Shown: positions 17,506 through 28,098, numbered from the stretch's first letter. The stretch: DNA of 32,000 nucleotides from Candidatus Paracaedimonas acanthamoebae (GCA_000743035.1 CP008936.1:660001-692000), one strand, 5' to 3'. Notes: generated by a model not told the origin, from the sequence alone. Translations and numbers: made by a program.

Positions 17506-17581
17506 GAATACCTTATATTCAATTTTTCTTGCAAATATAAATTTAAATTGTTTTTAGATTAAATAAATTATACAAAGCATC

Positions 17582-17663
17582 AACACCAGGGGTGCAAGCT
17601 TCAATAAAGTTTGCTGAGAAAAACCCTTATAACCTGTTCAGGATAATGCCTGCGAAGGGAGAG
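17582..17663 (+). ncRNA. TPP (THI-box) riboswitch
   Basis: CAGGGGTGC...GCTGAGAAAAACCCTTATAACCTGTTCAGGATAATGCCTGCGAAGGGAGAG matches the conserved THI-element core (GGGGUGC, CUGAGA, ACCUG-N-CAGGAUAAUGCC-GCG-AGGGA). Its 3' end overlaps the RBS of the downstream ORF. Confidence 0.85.
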
Positions 17664-17667
17664 TGAA

Positions 17668-18918
17668 ATGAAATTCAAATCAACTGCACAATCATCATTT
17701 TTAAAAAATAAAGTATTTTTATCGACTGTTGTTGGCAATAGTCTTGATCATTATGATACAGCTTTATATGGTTTTTTAGCGCCTTACATCGCTCCTCTTT
17801 TTTTTCCTAATAATGATCCTGTAGTGGCTCTGATTTATGCATATAGCCTCATATCTGCTTCAATCCTGACTCGCCCATTGGGAGCCTTATTTTTTGGAAA
17901 ATTTAGTGGTGAGAAAGGTGGGAGGCAAGCTTTTATCCTTTCATTATGGGGTGTTGCTTTAACAACTGGGGCAATGGGGATTCTTCCTTCTTATGATAAG
18001 ATTGGTCTGTTTGCGCCGTTAATTCTTGTATTTCTAAGGGCAGGACAAGGTTTTTTTGCTGCTGGTGAATCAACCGTGGCTCCTTTGCTTATGTTAAAGA
18101 ATGTCCCGATTATAGTTCAAGGCCAGGCAAATGGGATTTATCAAAGCTCAACAGTCGCAGGGATTCTTTTGGCTTCCCTAGCGGCAACTCTAGTTTCCTT
18201 CTCAAATAATTCTGATTTATATTGGAGATTTCCATTCTTCTTAAGCTTTTTAACTGGGCTTGCTGGTCTTTATCTCAGGTATCAAATCAATCAAAATATT
18301 TTTGAAGGAAAATTTACTACTCTCCATTCTTTAAAAGTAGTCATAACATTAATAGAACGTAAAAAAGATTTATTAAGAATTATCGCTGTTTCAAGCCTAA
18401 GTTATGTGACGTATGCAATCCCTTTTGTCTTTATGAATGTCTTTATTGTCCAAGTAACAGGATTAACTCTTAGCGAAACATTAGGATTTAATACAGTATT
18501 GTTGGCTTTAGATATGTGTCTTTTGCCATTATTTGGAAAGCTCTCTGATATTATGGGTATCCGAAGACAGATGACGCTTATGGCTTTACTTCTTGCTACT
18601 ACAGCCATTCCACTCTTTGCAATCATCCCTTTTGGCAATGTATTGAGTATTGGATTAATGCGGGTGTGGATTGTTCTTTGTGGGCTTGGCTTTTCTGCTC
18701 CATTGCATGCTTGGTTTACTCAAGCATTTAAAGGCCGAGAAGCTTATCTGTTGACAGGAGTGGGATATGCGCTTGGGTCTGAGTTATTTGGTCGTTCAAC
18801 CCCAGCAATTTGTCTCTCGCTTTGGCATTTAACCAACTGGGCTATAGCCCCTGCTTTTTATATTATTACGATAAGTATTGCTGCAATTCTCGCGCTCCAC
18901 GTAACTCTTTCAAAATAA
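17668..18918 (+). CDS. MFS transporter, metabolite:H+ symporter (MHS)-like; candidate thiamine or thiamine-precursor transporter
   Basis: Twelve-TM-like protein with an MHS-type N-terminus (GNSLDHYDTALYGFLAPYIAPLFFP). The functional prediction rests on the TPP riboswitch directly upstream. Confidence 0.8.
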   Translation: MKFKSTAQSSFLKNKVFLSTVVGNSLDHYDTALYGFLAPYIAPLFFPNNDPVVALIYAYSLISASILTRPLGALFFGKFSGEKGGRQAFILSLWGVALTTGAMGILPSYDKIGLFAPLILVFLRAGQGFFAAGESTVAPLLMLKNVPIIVQGQANGIYQSSTVAGILLASLAATLVSFSNNSDLYWRFPFFLSFLTGLAGLYLRYQINQNIFEGKFTTLHSLKVVITLIERKKDLLRIIAVSSLSYVTYAIPFVFMNVFIVQVTGLTLSETLGFNTVLLALDMCLLPLFGKLSDIMGIRRQMTLMALLLATTAIPLFAIIPFGNVLSIGLMRVWIVLCGLGFSAPLHAWFTQAFKGREAYLLTGVGYALGSELFGRSTPAICLSLWHLTNWAIAPAFYIITISIAAILALHVTLSK

Positions 18919-21206: not shown

Positions 21207-21270
21207 AGTTTTTAATGCTAATTTTTAATATTATTAAAATAGATATCCTTAAATATAATGAATAAATTTA

Positions 21271-21279
21271 TTATAATAA
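21271..21279. repeat. 9-bp direct repeat TTATAATAA (putative target-site duplication, left copy)
   Basis: Directly abuts the left IR. An identical 9-mer abuts the right IR at 24757-24765. Confidence 0.6.
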
Positions 21280-21297
21280 CGCAGTGTGCAAGTTTTA
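21280..21297. repeat. IS terminal inverted repeat (transposase 3' side)
   Basis: CGCAGTGTGCAAGTTTTA. The reverse complement of 24739-24756 is CGCCGTGTGCAAGTTTTA, one mismatch. The repeat overlaps the transposase stop codon. Confidence 0.7.
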
Positions 21298-22191
21298 AGG
21301 CTTAATGATGGCCTGTAATTGTAACGGTTTGTTCGGGTTTTGGCTTAAATTAACAAAGAATGCCATAGTATGGGCCAAGATTTTCCGAACTACCTTGGCC
21401 GTTAAATGCCACAAGTCCTTAGCCCTGATTTTCTGAATATTAAACCGTTCCACAAATTGCCCTATCACTGTCTCTACCTTCCTCCTGACCGATTTGATTT
21501 TTTTGATGAACCACGAAGGTCGTGTCTCCTTCATGTTGTCCCTTAAGGGCGTTTCAAGGGATAAACCCAATCTCGTTAAAAACCCTTTAAGCTCTGGCCT
21601 GATAAGGCCCTTGTCTGCTACAAGGAGGCCCTTCAACCCTTCCACCAGTTCTGGCAAAACATCCCTCTCGTCAATATTGGCCGCCGCCATTGTAAAAGAA
21701 AGGGGGACGCCATGGGAACTCATCAACAGATGGCCTTTGAAGCCAAAATATTTTTCATCCTTGGCGGCGCAATAGCCCACAGATCCTATCCCCCTGAAAG
21801 GGTTCCTTTTTCTCCATGCCCTTTTGATGTGGCAAGTCGGTATAGGGAAGCCATCAAAAATAAACAAATCATCTTGGGCAGGGTAAAGGAGACTGACAAG
21901 CTTCTTTTGGATCCTCCCTTTCAGATACCATGTGTTCGCGCATTGGCGGATAAAGCTTGTCCGGCTCCCAAGCTTTGGAAACCAGTCCTGTCAATGCCAC
22001 TTGAAATATTCCCAGATTCTCTTGTCGCTTCCCAAGCCCAGATGCTCCCCTACGAGTTCCATGGTTATGACCTCGGCATCTGTGAGTTGGGGAGCTTCTC
22101 CACGGGTACGGATTGACGCTCCTCCTAATTCATCCCGAAGAAAATCATCGACAAGGCAAAAAACTGTTGTAATATACATCTCAAGGATCAT
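21295..22191 (-). pseudogene. IS982-family DDE transposase with an in-frame TGA (complement of 21991-21993)
   Basis: The 66-aa ORF (ITTVFCLVDDFLRDE...APQLTDAEVITMEL...EYFKWH*) and the 190-aa ORF are in the same frame. Reading through the single TGA gives ...WH*QDWFPKLGSRTSFIRQCANTWYLKGRIQKKLVSLLYPAQDDLFIFDGFPIPTCH...LLVADKGLIRPELKGFLTRLGLSLETPLRDNMKE. That is a roughly 298-codon IS982-like protein. Confidence 0.8.
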
Positions 22192-22346
22192 GGGTTCCTC
22201 CTTTGTTTATAGGGTGTTTTCACATATTCTTATAAACAAGGGATCCATGACCCTTCAACAGCTTAACACCCATTTGTCCTGTTTTTTCTGGTTACAAACG
22301 GAAAATGCTTCTGTTAATAGCCTATAGGCGCTCAATGCATTATCTT

Positions 22347-22360
22347 ACCTCCCCCCCCGC
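22347..22360. repeat. C-rich direct repeat ACCTCCCCCCCCGC (5' flank of the RT gene)
   Basis: The imperfect partner ACCTCCCCCGC lies at 23634-23644, 3' of the RT stop. Confidence 0.4.
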
Positions 22361-22368
22361 TCTTTACC

Positions 22369-23560
22369 ATGGATGACCTTGCCAGCGCCTATCAATGGAT
22401 CAGCAAGCTCCGGCGTGACTATTCCCCCAACTCCGACATCTGGAACTTCCGCCGGGACTGGAACACGATGAAAGCGGAAATGCTTGCCCAACTTAATGAC
22501 GGATCGTACCAGTTTGGGGTTGATCGACCGCCTGGAATTTGAGGATGCGACCATTTCCCTATGGTCTTCATGCGACATGGTTGCCCTCAAGCTTATCTCT
22601 CAATCCCTGGGGCGGCGGATGGCAAAATACATCCCTAAGTCCTGCTGCCACGTCAAAAACCATGGCGGACTTAAAAAGGCGGTCCGGCAAACTTATGAAG
22701 CTTTACACGAATATCAATATGTTATGCGTTCCGATGTTAAAAGTTATTACAGCTCAATCGATTTTAGCGTCCTAATGGAAATTATCGGGTCTTACGTCAC
22801 CCACCCCATCCTTTTAACCTTGGTTCGTAAAGCTTGCCAGCGAACCGAAACCTGTGGAGGAACCTTCTATGATTATGATACAAAAGGCATTCCAAAGGGC
22901 AGCCCGTTGTCCCCATTATTGGGCGCAGTCGCCTTGATTCTCCTTGATAAAGCCATGGGGAAAATCAAGGGCGTTTTTTACCAACGCTACATGGATGACT
23001 GGTGCGTGCTGACCAAAAGCAAGTCCGCCTTGCGTAAGGTCGTCAAGCGTACCCATGAAGTCATGAGGGACTTAAAGTTTCAGTTGCATCCCCTAAAGAC
23101 ATATATTGGCAAGATCAGCCGAGGCTTTAATTTTTTGGCCTATTACATGGATTATCAAAAAATCTTGCCCTCAAAAGAAACAATCCGGCGTTTCCACGAA
23201 CGCGCCACCGCTCTTTACGAGACCCCGCAATCCGGTCACAACCACACGCCACGCCGCTGTCGGCACACGCCAAAGATAGCTGCACCGCGCGACATATCGG
23301 AATATTTGGTTAACGAGGCAGCTCCCACCAATGCATACCTGGAAGGTGTGCTCCAGAATCTCTTGGCTTTGGCTGCACGATCACCGGACTCCCTTGCGGC
23401 GATGCGGAGGCGCTTCGACCTATGGAAAAGCTGGCTGAGATTCGGTATAGCCACAATCGGGGAGTTTGCAACATCCGTGCAAAATTTCCTGCCCTGCATG
23501 TTTTCATGTTTCATTCAGGGTTTCGCCGCGCCCGCCACGGGCTCGGCAGTTGTTGGCTAA
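22369..23560 (+). pseudogene. stand-alone reverse transcriptase (about 396 aa), class undetermined, interrupted by a 1-nt frameshift near 22519
   Basis: RT motifs occur in order: SDVKSYYSSIDF, GIPKGSPLSPLLGAV, YQRYMDDWCVL (YMDD at 22988-22999) and HPLKTYIGKISRGFNFLAYY. The N-terminal 50 codons (MDDLASAYQWISKLRRDYSPNSDIWNFRRDWNTMKAEMLAQLNDGSYQFG) are in frame 1 from the ATG at 22369. The rest is in frame 2 (LIDRLEFEDATISLW...). One extra G in TTTGGGGTT accounts for the shift. Confidence 0.85.
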
Positions 23561-23568
23561 GCTTTATT

Positions 23569-24384
23569 TCAGTTCACAAACGAAACATGAAATTTTCCAT
23601 GCGCCCGCGTCCGCGACACACCACCAGAATACCACCTCCCCCGCAACCCCGACGGCGCACTTTTTTTCCAATTTTCATATAAATCAATTTTAGATAAATT
23701 ATCCGTATTCTCCGTCGTCAAATAATCCATATCATGATCATCAGCAGCCCAACCCCCCCCCCATGTCCAGAACAACCCAACTGGTGCCTGTTCCTGTTTC
23801 CAGTTATCCATGATTGGCTGGAAGTGCGCCGCCGTGGTGCTGAGTTCCCTTTCAATCAAAAACCTTGGGGCAACCCATATCTCGACCTTAATGGCATTCT
23901 CTTCTTTCTTCCCCTTGCGGTACCCTGTGTTGATGCTCAGATATCTTCCCGCATCGTCACAGTTTGATAGGTTAAACGTCCCTTCGAGAGGGTTCGGCAA
24001 TGCCGAAATGAATAAGTTAATTCGTCCCACATCGTTATCGGGATTAGGCTTATAAATGAGTGTGTCTTTAAAAAAGCGCCAAAAATCATCCTTATTTTTC
24101 TCTCCTATATTAAAATATTCGCAAACCCATCTTTTCGCATTCTCTTTGATGGTTGCGTGCCAATCTTTACAAACAAGTGATAAGTTTTTACAAACCTCCT
24201 CGAAACTCTTGTTTTGTAGCCTATCTAACATAACAGATTCTTCTAGAATGCCATGAGTTAGTTCTGCTGGAAGCTGCGAGACGTAGCATTTTTCGCCCTC
24301 TTCATTTTCCGTTGCCTGGGTTGTCTGGCAGCCTAACGCCAGAAAGGCAAACAGCGCCCATAAAGATTTTCTAATAAAATTCAT
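23569..24384 (-). CDS. secreted protein or lipoprotein with an F-box-like motif; otherwise unknown function
   Basis: The RBS AAGGAG precedes the ATG. The signal peptide carries the lipobox LALGC. The motif SQLPAELTHGILEE...LSLVCKDWHATIKE resembles the F-box pattern LPxExLxxI...L.LVCKxW. The last roughly 30 codons are read from the GC-rich RT 3' flank. Confidence 0.5.
   Translation of the reverse strand: MNFIRKSLWALFAFLALGCQTTQATENEEGEKCYVSQLPAELTHGILEESVMLDRLQNKSFEEVCKNLSLVCKDWHATIKENAKRWVCEYFNIGEKNKDDFWRFFKDTLIYKPNPDNDVGRINLFISALPNPLEGTFNLSNCDDAGRYLSINTGYRKGKKEENAIKVEIWVAPRFLIERELSTTAAHFQPIMDNWKQEQAPVGLFWTWGGGWAADDHDMDYLTTENTDNLSKIDLYENWKKSAPSGLRGRWYSGGVSRTRAHGKFHVSFVN
23634..23644. repeat. 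C-rich direct repeat ACCTCCCCCGC (3' flank of the RT gene)
   Basis: Partner of 22347-22360. It lies in the GC-rich 130-nt stretch between the RT stop and a T7 run. Confidence 0.4.
23753..23762 (-). repeat. homopolymeric G10 tract (C10 on the + strand) inside the F-box-like CDS
   Basis: The coding strand reads TGG GGG GGG GGT, encoding WGGG in ...LFWTWGGGWAADD. Confidence 0.9.
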
Positions 24385-24738
24385 ACTAGTTCTCCTTAAA
24401 TACTTTTATATCATTTTTCCAAAAAACATCTTCAGCTTTTAGTTGATATTTGTGTCATTCATATATCTAAGAACTCAAGGATCAAAATACAAGACACTAC
24501 CCAACTTTTTTGCATTTCTATTTGAAAATTATTTTAATTTGTTGATACTTAATGATAATTATTATAATAACTTCAGCTCGAATTGCAAAAAAATTGATTA
24601 CGAGATGATCAATAGCACGATTTATGAAGGTCAAAGAATTCATAATGTTGCAGGAGATACTGCGCTTCCAATAAGTAAAAGGGCAACCTAGAACTTATCT
24701 TCTCTCATAGAGCGTGCAACCTCATCTACGGCATCCAA

Positions 24739-24756
24739 TAAAACTTGCACACGGCG
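24739..24756. repeat. IS terminal inverted repeat (distal copy)
   Basis: TAAAACTTGCACACGGCG, followed directly by TTATAATAA. Confidence 0.7.
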
Positions 24757-24765
24757 TTATAATAA
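24757..24765. repeat. 9-bp direct repeat TTATAATAA (putative target-site duplication, right copy)
   Basis: Identical to 21271-21279 and directly abuts the IR. Confidence 0.6.
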
Positions 24766-25244
24766 TATATTAATAAACATCAATATTTATAATATGATTA
24801 TTGAAAAAAACCTCTTTTAAATTTTTTAATGAGATATATTTTTGAACTTTTTATATAAATATTTGAGGCTATTAGAATGCTTAATTAAAAACTGTGCAGG
24901 CATTCCTGAATCATACCTATCATAATTTTTTAAAGTTTTTGTGCTTATAGTATGCTTTCTTTCTCTTCTTGCTATCATCTTATTATTTCCTAAATTTAAG
25001 TTTTATTTAATAGACAATAGGATGATCGCTAGTTACTTTACGATGTGAATTATTAGAAGTTTTTAACCAAGAATAAATATTTATAACTTAAATACTTGAA
25101 AAGTAATATTATTTTTATGAAAATTCATAAAGTTTAAAATCATAACAAATTATCGACTTTAACTCAAAGATTTCAATAGCTTAATTTTAAGATGTCTAGG
25201 ATGACTAAAGCAATTTTGCTAAACAACATTTAGAGGTAATAATT

Positions 25245-28003: not shown

Positions 28004-28078
<75 letters not shown>

Positions 28079-28098
28079 CTCACCAAAAGGAATATAGG

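Follow-up and report, generated by a model that had tools for sequence, protein, structure and literature searches.

We analysed a 32,000-nt stretch of DNA from Candidatus Paracaedimonas acanthamoebae (GCA_000743035.1, CP008936.1:660001-692000), referred to here as the window. It contains a compact reverse transcriptase (RT) gene and, convergent to it on the opposite strand, a partner gene that we call c1. Between the conserved parts of the two genes lies a short cassette, rich in guanine and cytosine (GC), which differs between loci that are otherwise nearly identical. On its RT side the cassette is bounded by a conserved element that belongs to a structured motif, on its partner side by a run of T, and inverted repeats of an insertion sequence (IS) enclose both genes. 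Coordinates are counted from the first letter of the window (Table 1).

Table 1. Features of the RT-partner module and of the IS around it, in window coordinates (a dot stands for a feature given without strand).
Feature	Position	Strand	Description
RT gene, UG4 class by profile scores	22369-23560	+	396 aa once one base is removed; +1 frameshift at 22516-22521
C-run leader ACCTCCCCCCCCGCTCTTTACC	22347-22368	+	In-frame PPPPLFT; directly 5' of the RT start; homology to relatives begins here
Structured 3' motif of the RT gene	23496-23597	+	Covariance-model match, 39.3 bits, E 2.9e-5
Helix P1	23502-23512 with 23582-23592	+	GAAACATGAAA at the element 3' end pairs with TTTCATGTTTC about 75 nt upstream in the RT reading frame
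Hairpin P2	23525-23547	+	Inside P1, GC-rich, just before the RT stop (23558-23560)
Conserved element GCTTTATTTCAGTTCACAAACGAAACATGAAAT	23561-23593	.	3' half of the motif; three-frame stop for the partner reading frame
Hypervariable GC-rich cassette	23594-23660	.	Encodes the C-terminal tail of the partner (…KKSAPSGLRGRWYSGGVSRTRAHGK…)
T7 run	23661-23667	.	A-run 'KK' codons on the partner strand; partner-side cassette boundary
Partner gene c1	23569-24384	-	Signal-peptide-like N-terminus, weak F-box-like region, c1 domain, 32-aa hypervariable tail
c1 upstream region, part of the module	24385-24654	-	Homology to L138 reaches 24654
IS transposase, split in two reading frames	21295-21867 and 21991-22191	-	DDE family
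Left inverted repeat of the IS	21262-21297	.	36 nt, 89% complementary to 24739-24774
Right inverted repeat of the IS	24739-24774	.	Pairs with the left arm, 21262-21297

The RT is split over two overlapping frames of the plus strand (22369-22542 and 22484-23560), which are joined by the removal of a single base into the compact protein that an earlier note on this DNA had described. The catalytic YMDD is intact, motif 4 reads GSPLSP, and 43 aligned homologues show no variation at D209 or D210. A total of 220 homologues were found, the best being 85% identical over the full length, and the closest intact one (L001) has an RT gene whose DNA is 86% identical to that of the window. Comparison of the frameshift site in L001 (CAGTTTGGGGTGATC) and in the window (CAGTTTGGGGTTGATC) bears out a single additional base but not necessarily the G that the earlier note had named, since the extra base is most simply a T at 22520/22521. 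The frameshift may be a mutation or a sequencing error.

Pfam detected RVT_1 only (E = 1.7e-16), and neither Pfam nor NCBIfam found a maturase (X/GIIM) or endonuclease domain in the RT. Among PADLOC profiles RT_UG4 was the best match (E = 6.8e-85, 282.9 bits, model positions 5-285 of 307), far ahead of UG18 (2.5e-33) and UG17 (about 1e-33), and the RT homologue P0001 gave the same outcome. The NCBIfam models for group II, retron and DRT enzymes all scored far under their cutoffs, with 96 bits against 300 for TIGR04416 (group II) and 44 bits against 235 for retron_St85. An Rfam scan, run at the gathering threshold and at E <= 1, returned no group II, retron or other RNA family; the matches at E <= 1 were sub-threshold, microRNA-like and confined to a palindrome of the IS. 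By profile scores alone the window RT is assigned to the UG4 class, which agrees with the earlier note in placing it in an uncharacterised UG lineage, apart from group II, retron and diversity-generating retroelement (DGR) enzymes and with no maturase or endonuclease extension.

Classical UG4 RTs score higher on the same profile (327-450 bits, E 1e-98 to 1e-135, against 283 bits for the window RT) and are shorter (278-347 aa, against 396-420 aa in the subclade of the window RT), so the window RT appears to represent a divergent, longer UG4 subclade. Its conserved C-terminal helical extension is not covered by the 307-position profile. The AlphaFold 2 (AF2) model of the RT (pLDDT 84) shows fingers and palm, a disordered linker (residues 285-309) and a small four-helix C-terminal region, and the nearest solved folds are GsI-IIC, G2L4, the DGR enzyme bRT and DRT9. 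The subclade is typical of Holosporales-like alphaproteobacterial endosymbionts, where it is seen in metagenome-assembled genomes (MAGs); the nearest relatives from genomes are MAGs that carry the labels Candidatus Finniella and uncultured Alphaproteobacteria. With such relatives, the window, which is low in GC, would probably derive from a protist endosymbiont of Holosporales type. The RT region is the GC maximum of the window (0.47-0.51, at most 0.44 elsewhere), as had been noticed by eye.

The earlier note had described the RT as an orphan with a GC-rich 3' flank. GC-rich it is, but this sequence is the 3' end of the convergent c1 open reading frame (ORF), which had been missed. Our locus set comprised 36 loci from genomes, 80 from metagenomes and some additional contigs; 51 loci make up the close clade, and 38 of these have at least 500 nt downstream of the RT. 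A convergent gene lies downstream of the RT in all 38. In 36 of them its product carries a conserved C-terminal domain of about 160 aa, the c1 domain, and in the remaining two (L009 and L051) a second convergent partner family occupies the equivalent position. All but one of the directly adjacent c1 partners stop between -7 and +45 nt from the RT stop. Besides the partner gene the RT has no conserved neighbour, neither an Avd-like ORF nor defence genes. The RT is thus no stand-alone gene, since a partner abuts its stop in every related locus with enough sequence; and because that partner is present in the window, this copy is not the remnant stripped of its usual partners that the earlier note had allowed for.

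Pfam found only an F-box-like region in the window partner (E = 0.034). At other loci a U-box (E = 9e-16) and dynamin-like GTPases are among the partner N-termini, and modules of this sort are typical of eukaryote-like effectors. The partner would be a secreted, effector-like protein. The c1 domain had no Pfam match and, in the AF2 model of the partner (pLDDT 80), no fold match in the PDB; the varied tail is disordered in the model. The family is large, with 752 clusters at 50% identity. Nearly all of the 181 c1-family proteins inspected have a C-terminal c1 domain followed by a non-conserved tail (median 21 aa past the profile), most tails end, by eye, in peptides encoded by the conserved element, and no partner gene without a tail past the c1 domain was found among them. 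Some family members (P0161-P0171 and others) have two c1 domains or have the domain far from the C-terminus, as in P0204, a 950-aa protein with c1 at 342-508; these may be fusions that arose by loss of the stop element. The second partner family (L009 7165-8121 and L051 1144-2070, both on the minus strand) has a signal peptide, an F-box-like LxxxCKAW motif and a different C-terminal domain, and its tails are also divergent and end in element-encoded peptides. Upstream of c1 there is a promoter-like TTTGCA-17-TATAAT at 24589-24561. A run of ten C at 23755-23764 (G10 on the coding strand) encodes WGGGW of the c1 domain and is shorter in homologues; it is a further slippage-prone site, within the partner gene.

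The cassette, its boundaries and its variation

Across loci the cassette spans 33-130 nt between the motif and the last conserved codons of the partner (…NLYENWKK, which appear as the T-run on the plus strand), and the last 20-45 codons of the partner fall in this GC-rich variable stretch. The identical T-run boundary is found in L002, L018/L043, L055 and L064/L065. In the window the cassette has a GC content of 0.68, against 0.46-0.50 in the flanking genes; across loci it ranges from 0.47 to 0.82 and is at least 0.55 in 25 of 30, whereas the partner gene next to it has 0.34-0.51 and the RT gene 0.38-0.56. Cassettes are usually C-rich on the RT strand and enriched in purine-pyrimidine and pyrimidine-purine (RY/YR) steps. 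Since they are GC-rich while the genomes are AT-rich, relaxed drift is an unlikely source. The cassette is also translated: a stop interrupts the partner frame of its variable part in 2 of 31 loci, and either of the other two frames in 17 of 31.

No template copy of the cassettes was found within 4 kb on either side (30 loci, z about 0 against shuffled controls) or in the whole of the long loci, and neither the window cassette nor the 3' flank of the RT has a copy anywhere in the 32 kb of the window, which upholds the earlier statement that there is no template/variable repeat pair. A shared donor, or a spacer-like common origin, was rejected, since an all-against-all comparison equalled that of shuffled sequences and the cassettes are unrelated between loci. 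We also considered the cassette and T-run as an intrinsic terminator; the window copy has no terminator-like hairpin, and some loci do have one, but not generally. The two C-rich strings that the earlier note took for direct repeats bracketing the gene, ACCTCCCCCCCCGC (22347-22360) and ACCTCCCCCGC (23634-23644), are both present. Their likeness is incidental and they do not form a repeat pair, because the first is a conserved leader and the second lies in the non-conserved cassette.

The conserved element follows the RT stop directly, and its DNA is kept among RTs that are only about 60% identical. The partner ORF terminates inside it, and across loci it is translated in all three frames, as FHVSFVN, SCSFCELK or FTFRL, each followed by a stop. 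As different loci read different frames, the element is conserved as nucleic acid and not as protein. It provides stops in all three partner-strand frames in 17 of 25 loci, where shuffled sequences give an expectation of 3.6.

This element forms the 3' half of the structured motif that begins within the RT ORF. MAFFT and RNAalifold on the raw alignment recovered only P1, because P2, whose sequence differs in each lineage, is too variable to align; we instead used a covariance model seeded with eight loci, the window not among them. The model found the motif at the equivalent place in 45 loci, the window included, and gave no match in the classical UG4 loci searched with it. In the resulting alignment 88% of cells are paired, against 32-47% in slid controls, compensatory double changes occur in 13 of 17 pairs, including all eight of P2, and covariation is 0.361, against 0.139 in shuffles. 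These values come from an alignment that was fitted to the model; P1 already had support in the MAFFT alignment, which was not. Taken together, the comparative data point to a covarying structured element linked to the RT, of the kind that the earlier note had suspected.

Pairs of near-identical loci place the differences in the cassette. L132 and L133 differ at 11 of 81 nt in the cassette and at 1 of 4,873 nt outside it (Fisher p = 1e-19), and the changes are mostly transitions (C<->T, A<->G) together with a 1-nt deletion that shifts the partner stop. Between L018 and L043, 30 of 63 cassette columns differ and 2 of 2,994 outside, with cassette lengths of 46 and 59 nt; between L064 and L065 the counts are 48 of 78 inside and 19 of 1,269 outside. 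For L002 and L039 they are 11 of 132 and 5 of 2,693, and the changes are G<->C and C<->T, with none at A. Three loci with an identical RT protein (L135, L136 and L137) have three different sequences right after …CATGAAATTTT. The nearest relative of the window copy (L138), 90.5% identical over 1.7 kb, differs in cassette sequence, cassette length and element reading frame, and the window cassette is unalignable to that of L001 despite flanks that are 76-85% identical. The changes therefore span clustered substitutions, 1-nt indels and complete replacement with a change of length. The boundaries are sharp, and the two partial cases changed on the motif-proximal side.

Eight metagenomic contigs (L038, L041, L044, L046, L050, L082, L135 and L137) end 30-146 nt past the RT stop, inside or at the cassette. 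Such ends are expected if assemblies break on cassette polymorphism within a sample, which is only a hint. L127-L131 share an identical RT fragment, and their contigs end inside the RT gene and carry no junction information.

The insertion sequence and the flanks of the module

The inverted repeats enclose the split transposase on the minus strand, the RT and the partner. Their 22-nt core occurs in the window only at these two sites, with none expected by chance, and the 190-aa part of the transposase matches DDE_Tnp_1_3 (2.9e-19) and DDE_Tnp_1 (6e-14). Homology between the window and L138 covers 22715-24654, that is, the RT from the point at which it is truncated in L138, the partner and 270 nt upstream of the partner, and blastn homology to L038 starts at 22356. 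From these extents the whole module of about 2.3 kb (22347-24654) lies inside the IS, between the transposase start and the right inverted repeat. The earlier note's nesting of the RT in the IS is correct for the RT-partner module as a whole, not for the RT alone.

In the window the partner ORF is intact, and the transposase and the RT are each disrupted. Several relatives have frameshifted or truncated RTs. Given these disruptions, and with decay common in the family, the window copy may be a decaying module; its RT, being frameshifted, would be currently inactive or reliant on another copy, unless the shift is a sequencing error. A long imperfect palindrome (22183-22256) overlaps the transposase start codon, has a terminator-like stem and gives the sub-threshold, microRNA-precursor-like Rfam matches mentioned above; it probably belongs to the IS and sequesters the site at which translation of the transposase begins. 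Elsewhere in the window there are a TPP riboswitch (17578-17678, plus strand, 66.7 bits) ahead of an ORF at 17668-18918 and a tRNA gene (28008-28079, minus strand), both ordinary chromosomal features.

At the 5' end of the module the C-run, followed by GCTCTTTACC, is kept in many family members, where it encodes PPPLFT of N-terminally extended homologues, and there is no family-wide conservation in the sequence upstream of the RT past this leader. The C-run as a 5' retrotransposition junction was ruled out, the upstream sequence being conserved or coding in several lineages. Runs of 5-12 C lie 5' of, or inside, the RT N-terminal extension in the window (22347-22360) and in L003, L005, L048, L053 and L069. 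In L005 an upstream ATG and a run of eleven C are out of frame with the RT, and ten C would restore the frame. The C-run near the RT start could be a slipped-strand on/off switch.

RT-partner modules are often plasmid-like in context (L118-L121, L135, L136, L007 and L012), with genes for the RPA replication protein (PF10134), HicAB, ParE/YafQ, relaxase-type helicases and IS256-type transposases. These contexts agree with the plasmid bias reported for UG4, a class 2 UG/Abi lineage that is frequent on plasmids, with one subgroup near fimbrial genes, and for which the function is not known and enrichment in defence islands was not detected (PMC9226505, PMC8934634). Fimbrial neighbours, which characterise that subgroup, are put at 66% in myRT; they are absent at the window locus, where the partner belongs to the c1 family, and among our loci were seen only in the Escherichia marmotae plasmid L124.

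Possible causes of the cassette variation

The comparison calls for a process that acts at a fixed site set by an RT-linked structured element and uses no donor copy. Such a process must yield substitutions and indels as well as whole replacements, with a base composition of its own. The RT is the simplest agent, because it is linked in cis to every such site. Our preferred reading, to which we give a little less than even weight, is that the RT rewrites the cassette from its own 3' element, generating diversity without a template repeat. The RT would recognise the P1/P2 motif in cis, and DNA synthesis would begin at the end of the motif and proceed into the cassette. This synthesis could either copy one of the convergent transcripts, which would overlap, with very low fidelity, or add nucleotides without a template. 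The product would then replace the resident cassette by recombination or repair, with the motif on one side and the conserved 3' codons and T-run of the partner on the other serving as homology. The outcome would be a diversified C-terminal tail on a secreted, effector-like protein, a DGR-like result reached without a template repeat, and any resulting frame would be tolerated because a three-frame stop follows the cassette. We infer all four of these steps; the anatomy and the pattern of variation are what the comparison of loci shows. As precedent we count the other UG/Abi RTs that make template-free, semirandom DNA or DNA templated by non-coding RNA (ncRNA) (PMC13275509). In addition, Simon and Zimmerly described two UG4 copies more than 90% identical whose 5' flanks are identical and whose 3' flanks have no identity (PMC2602772).

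Several observations weigh against rewriting by the RT. We infer its causal role solely from the strict linkage and from the position of the boundary. Cassettes differ also beside RTs that are 5'-truncated (L018, L138) or frameshifted (the window), and this variation may predate the decay of the RT, require a copy acting in trans or be independent of the RT. The same RT is joined to different partner genes in L118 and L122, a swap that fits mobility or recombination as well as diversification. In a few lineages the compositional bias is reversed and the cassette is G/T-rich, and in one sublineage tails are conserved among three 50%-identity clusters (P0142, P0143 and P0145). The two partial cases show no adenine bias, and their substitution spectra differ. 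Nor is the strand of the motif settled by folding: the plus strand has the more stable minimum free energy in 17 of 25 loci (p = 0.48, not significant), and wobble pairs are undecisive (32 GU/UG cells against 27 AC/CA).

Two other explanations are, in our judgement, each clearly less probable than rewriting and about equally so. The first takes the RT unit, made of the 5' leader, the RT and the structured 3' end, as a site-specific retroelement resembling non-long-terminal-repeat elements, which would insert by target-primed reverse transcription (TPRT) at the A-run of partner-type gene 3' ends. The cassette would then be non-templated junctional filler, the three-frame stop would end the interrupted ORF, and tail diversity would be a by-product. 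The geometry suits TPRT, as the partner strand reads conserved codons, A-run, G-rich filler and then the complement of the RT RNA 3' end, and RNAs that an RT recognises in cis as its own typically carry structure at the 3' end. The joining of RTs to different partners, in L118 and L122 and in the classical UG4 pair L073 and L075, is also as expected. On Salmonella IncF plasmids a discrete RT unit of 1.4 kb is 95% identical and the adjoining 3.2 kb of an inverse-autotransporter gene is not, and the inverted, 5'-truncated RT copy in L123 ends at the identical 3' junction. Genomes carry several modules each, 5'-truncated copies within contigs retain the 3' end (L011, L017, L018, L118-122, L138), and among RTs outside group II Simon and Zimmerly saw a hint of retromobility in UG4 alone (PMC2602772). 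However, no empty target was found, and practically every c1-domain protein inspected has a tail, most of which look element-derived. The paralogous modules within a genome are old (60-80% identity) and not recent copies, the RT has no endonuclease domain, and in most copies the 5' boundary is not variable as LINE-like truncation predicts. Re-insertion, moreover, hardly explains clustered point substitutions in an otherwise identical 5-kb locus (L132/L133).

The second explanation, which we also consider unlikely, is that the RT is irrelevant to the cassette and has another role, such as plasmid addiction, antisense regulation by way of the overlapping 3' ends or another class 2 UG/Abi function. 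Variation would then come from recombination between paralogous modules, from slippage or instability of alternating CG, or from mutagenesis by colliding transcription. Cassette differences beside truncated or frameshifted RTs are what this predicts; the conserved sequence on both sides of the cassette could act as recombination arms, each genome has several modules, the cassettes are enriched in RY/YR steps, and the loci are often plasmid-like, as UG4 is frequent on plasmids (PMC9226505). The arms are just 25-35 nt or so, however, and conversion tracts confined to the cassette between 100% identical flanks are unlikely (L018/L043). Recombination creates no diversity, whereas the cassettes are unrelated across all loci, with no matches; GC-rich cassettes in AT-rich genomes need a dedicated source; and the cis linkage in 38 of 38 loci, like the boundary at the end of a covarying RT-linked motif, stays unexplained.

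Very improbable is the defence role suggested in the earlier note, in which a stand-alone, DRT-like RT would act with a flanking ncRNA against phages: the UG/Abi lineage, the presence among the next-best profiles of UG17, characterised as DRT10, and the structured element attached to the RT speak for it, but enrichment of UG4 in defence islands was not detected (PMC9226505), no defence genes are conserved beside the RT and nothing else at the locus suggests defence, what is conserved there, in genomes of obligate-endosymbiont type, is a gene for a secreted effector-like protein with a U-box, F-box-like or GTPase N-terminus, and the neighbours at other UG4 loci are PEP-CTERM proteins and inverse autotransporter adhesins.

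If the RT does rewrite the cassette, UG4 enzymes would be a second, mechanistically distinct kind of diversity-generating retroelement, template-free or self-templated and indel-prone, which places GC-biased DNA at the junction with a convergent gene and continually re-creates the C-terminal tails of secreted or surface proteins. We hold this generalisation a shade more tentatively than the rewriting itself; besides the effector-like proteins of protist endosymbionts, it could possibly extend to inverse-autotransporter adhesins and PEP-CTERM proteins. In catalogues since 2008, UG4 has had no known function or defence link, and one unexplained class of bacterial RT would thereby gain a function. 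Targeted protein diversification would be seen to work without the template repeat that current DGR-finding software requires, and protist endosymbionts would have a large effector-like family, of at least 750 clusters at 50% identity, whose C-termini are randomised on purpose. With one RT of about 400 aa, a motif some 100 nt long and a cassette, the system is small enough to be reconstituted and might serve localised mutagenesis in vivo. Even if the RT is not the cause, a sharply bounded, translated hypervariable segment followed by a three-frame stop is unusual and calls for explanation.

In open-access papers and bioRxiv we found no report of a UG4 function or of RT-linked hypervariable tails beyond classification papers, and none of the obligate convergent partner, the c1 family, the covarying 3' motif, the three-frame stop or the template-less cassette. 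The RT class is already known, and the partner, motif, stop and cassette appear to be new as far as that literature goes.

Comparison with known systems

With UG4 RTs as described by Simon and Zimmerly (2008) and Mestre et al. (2022), the window RT shares the best profile, a compact enzyme with no further known domain, a setting in mobile or plasmid-like DNA, and related copies that differ in their 3' flank, as in Francisella (PMC2602772). It differs from them in its extra disordered linker and four-helix C-terminal region, and its partner, a new effector-like family, sets it apart from the fimbrial subgroup.

At classical UG4 loci of marine and gammaproteobacterial origin (L073, L075, L084, L085, L089, L092, L097, L102-L105, L107, L110, L111, L024 and L026) a convergent gene reaches into the 3' end of the RT gene, mostly with an overlap of about 50-80 nt, and encodes a protein with a signal peptide and a PEP-CTERM sorting signal (PF07589). 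L073 and L075 share 98.8% identity along the RT and for another 26 nt past its stop, after which they encode unrelated protein bodies that share only the PEP-CTERM tail. On the Salmonella IncF plasmids L123 (NZ_CP019190.1), L125 (CP147853.1) and L126 (NZ_CP051369.1) the UG4 RT is convergent to an inverse autotransporter gene of intimin/invasin type and overlaps or abuts its 3' end; homology between the plasmids breaks off some 125 nt short of the RT stop and returns 3.2 kb further on, in the beta-domain. In L123 the inverted RT fragment adjoins a second inverse autotransporter gene. Classical UG4 RTs (L081, L092, L098, L099, L106, L113 and others) have a lineage-specific hairpin in their coding sequence about 150 nt before the RT stop, right after conserved LYEQ codons, for example AAAAGCCATCC-TAAT-TGGATGGCTTTT, AACGGCGCC-AGAA-GGCGCCGTT and GCAGGGGGAGCC-TTCC-GGCTCCCCCTGC. 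This hairpin may be the counterpart of P2.

Group II and group II-like RTs (GsI-IIC and G2L4) are the closest solved structures by sequence and fold, with E-values of 4e-18 and 2e-17. Unlike them, the window RT has no GIIM or endonuclease domain and no ribozyme was found beside it, and its flanks are the IS and the partner ORF. Nor does the window locus have an Rfam retron match or a retron-type profile.

The system shares more with DGRs, namely an RT linked in cis to its target, hypervariation confined to a short 3'-terminal stretch of a gene whose product is secreted or at the surface, a structured RNA beside the varied segment, and an RT fold near that of bRT (root-mean-square deviation 3.7 Å over 289 columns). 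It differs in having no pair of template and variable repeats, no adenine-specific pattern and no Avd-like ORF, and in that indels and length changes occur. The window RT also lies outside the DGR clade, with GSPLSP in place of SQ in motif 4 and UG4 as best profile, and the target is convergent, with a varied segment predicted to be a disordered tail and not a CLec fold. As none of the defining DGR features tested is present apart from the outcome, the system would be a case of RT-linked targeted diversification and not a DGR member.

R2 and LINE-1, which move by TPRT, have in common with the window system a structured RNA 3' end, extra unrelated nucleotides at the junction, 5'-truncated copies and several copies per genome. 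Here, in contrast, there is no endonuclease and no empty sites were found, and the junction is translated, kept open and point-substituted in situ.

The cassettes themselves look most like products of template-free synthesis by AbiK, Abi-P2 and DRT1, or of N-addition by terminal transferase in V(D)J joining, being biased random sequence of variable length at a fixed junction. Among UG/Abi RTs, such synthesis without a template is documented in classes 1 and 3, whereas UG4 belongs to class 2, whose characterised members use ncRNA templates (PMC13275509). The products of AbiK, Abi-P2 and DRT1 are protein-linked, non-genomic defence DNA, for which incorporation into chromosomal coding sequence is not described. 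The mechanism proposed here for UG4 would in this respect be a bacterial analogue of N-region, or junctional, diversity, in which a three-frame stop ensures that translation terminates.

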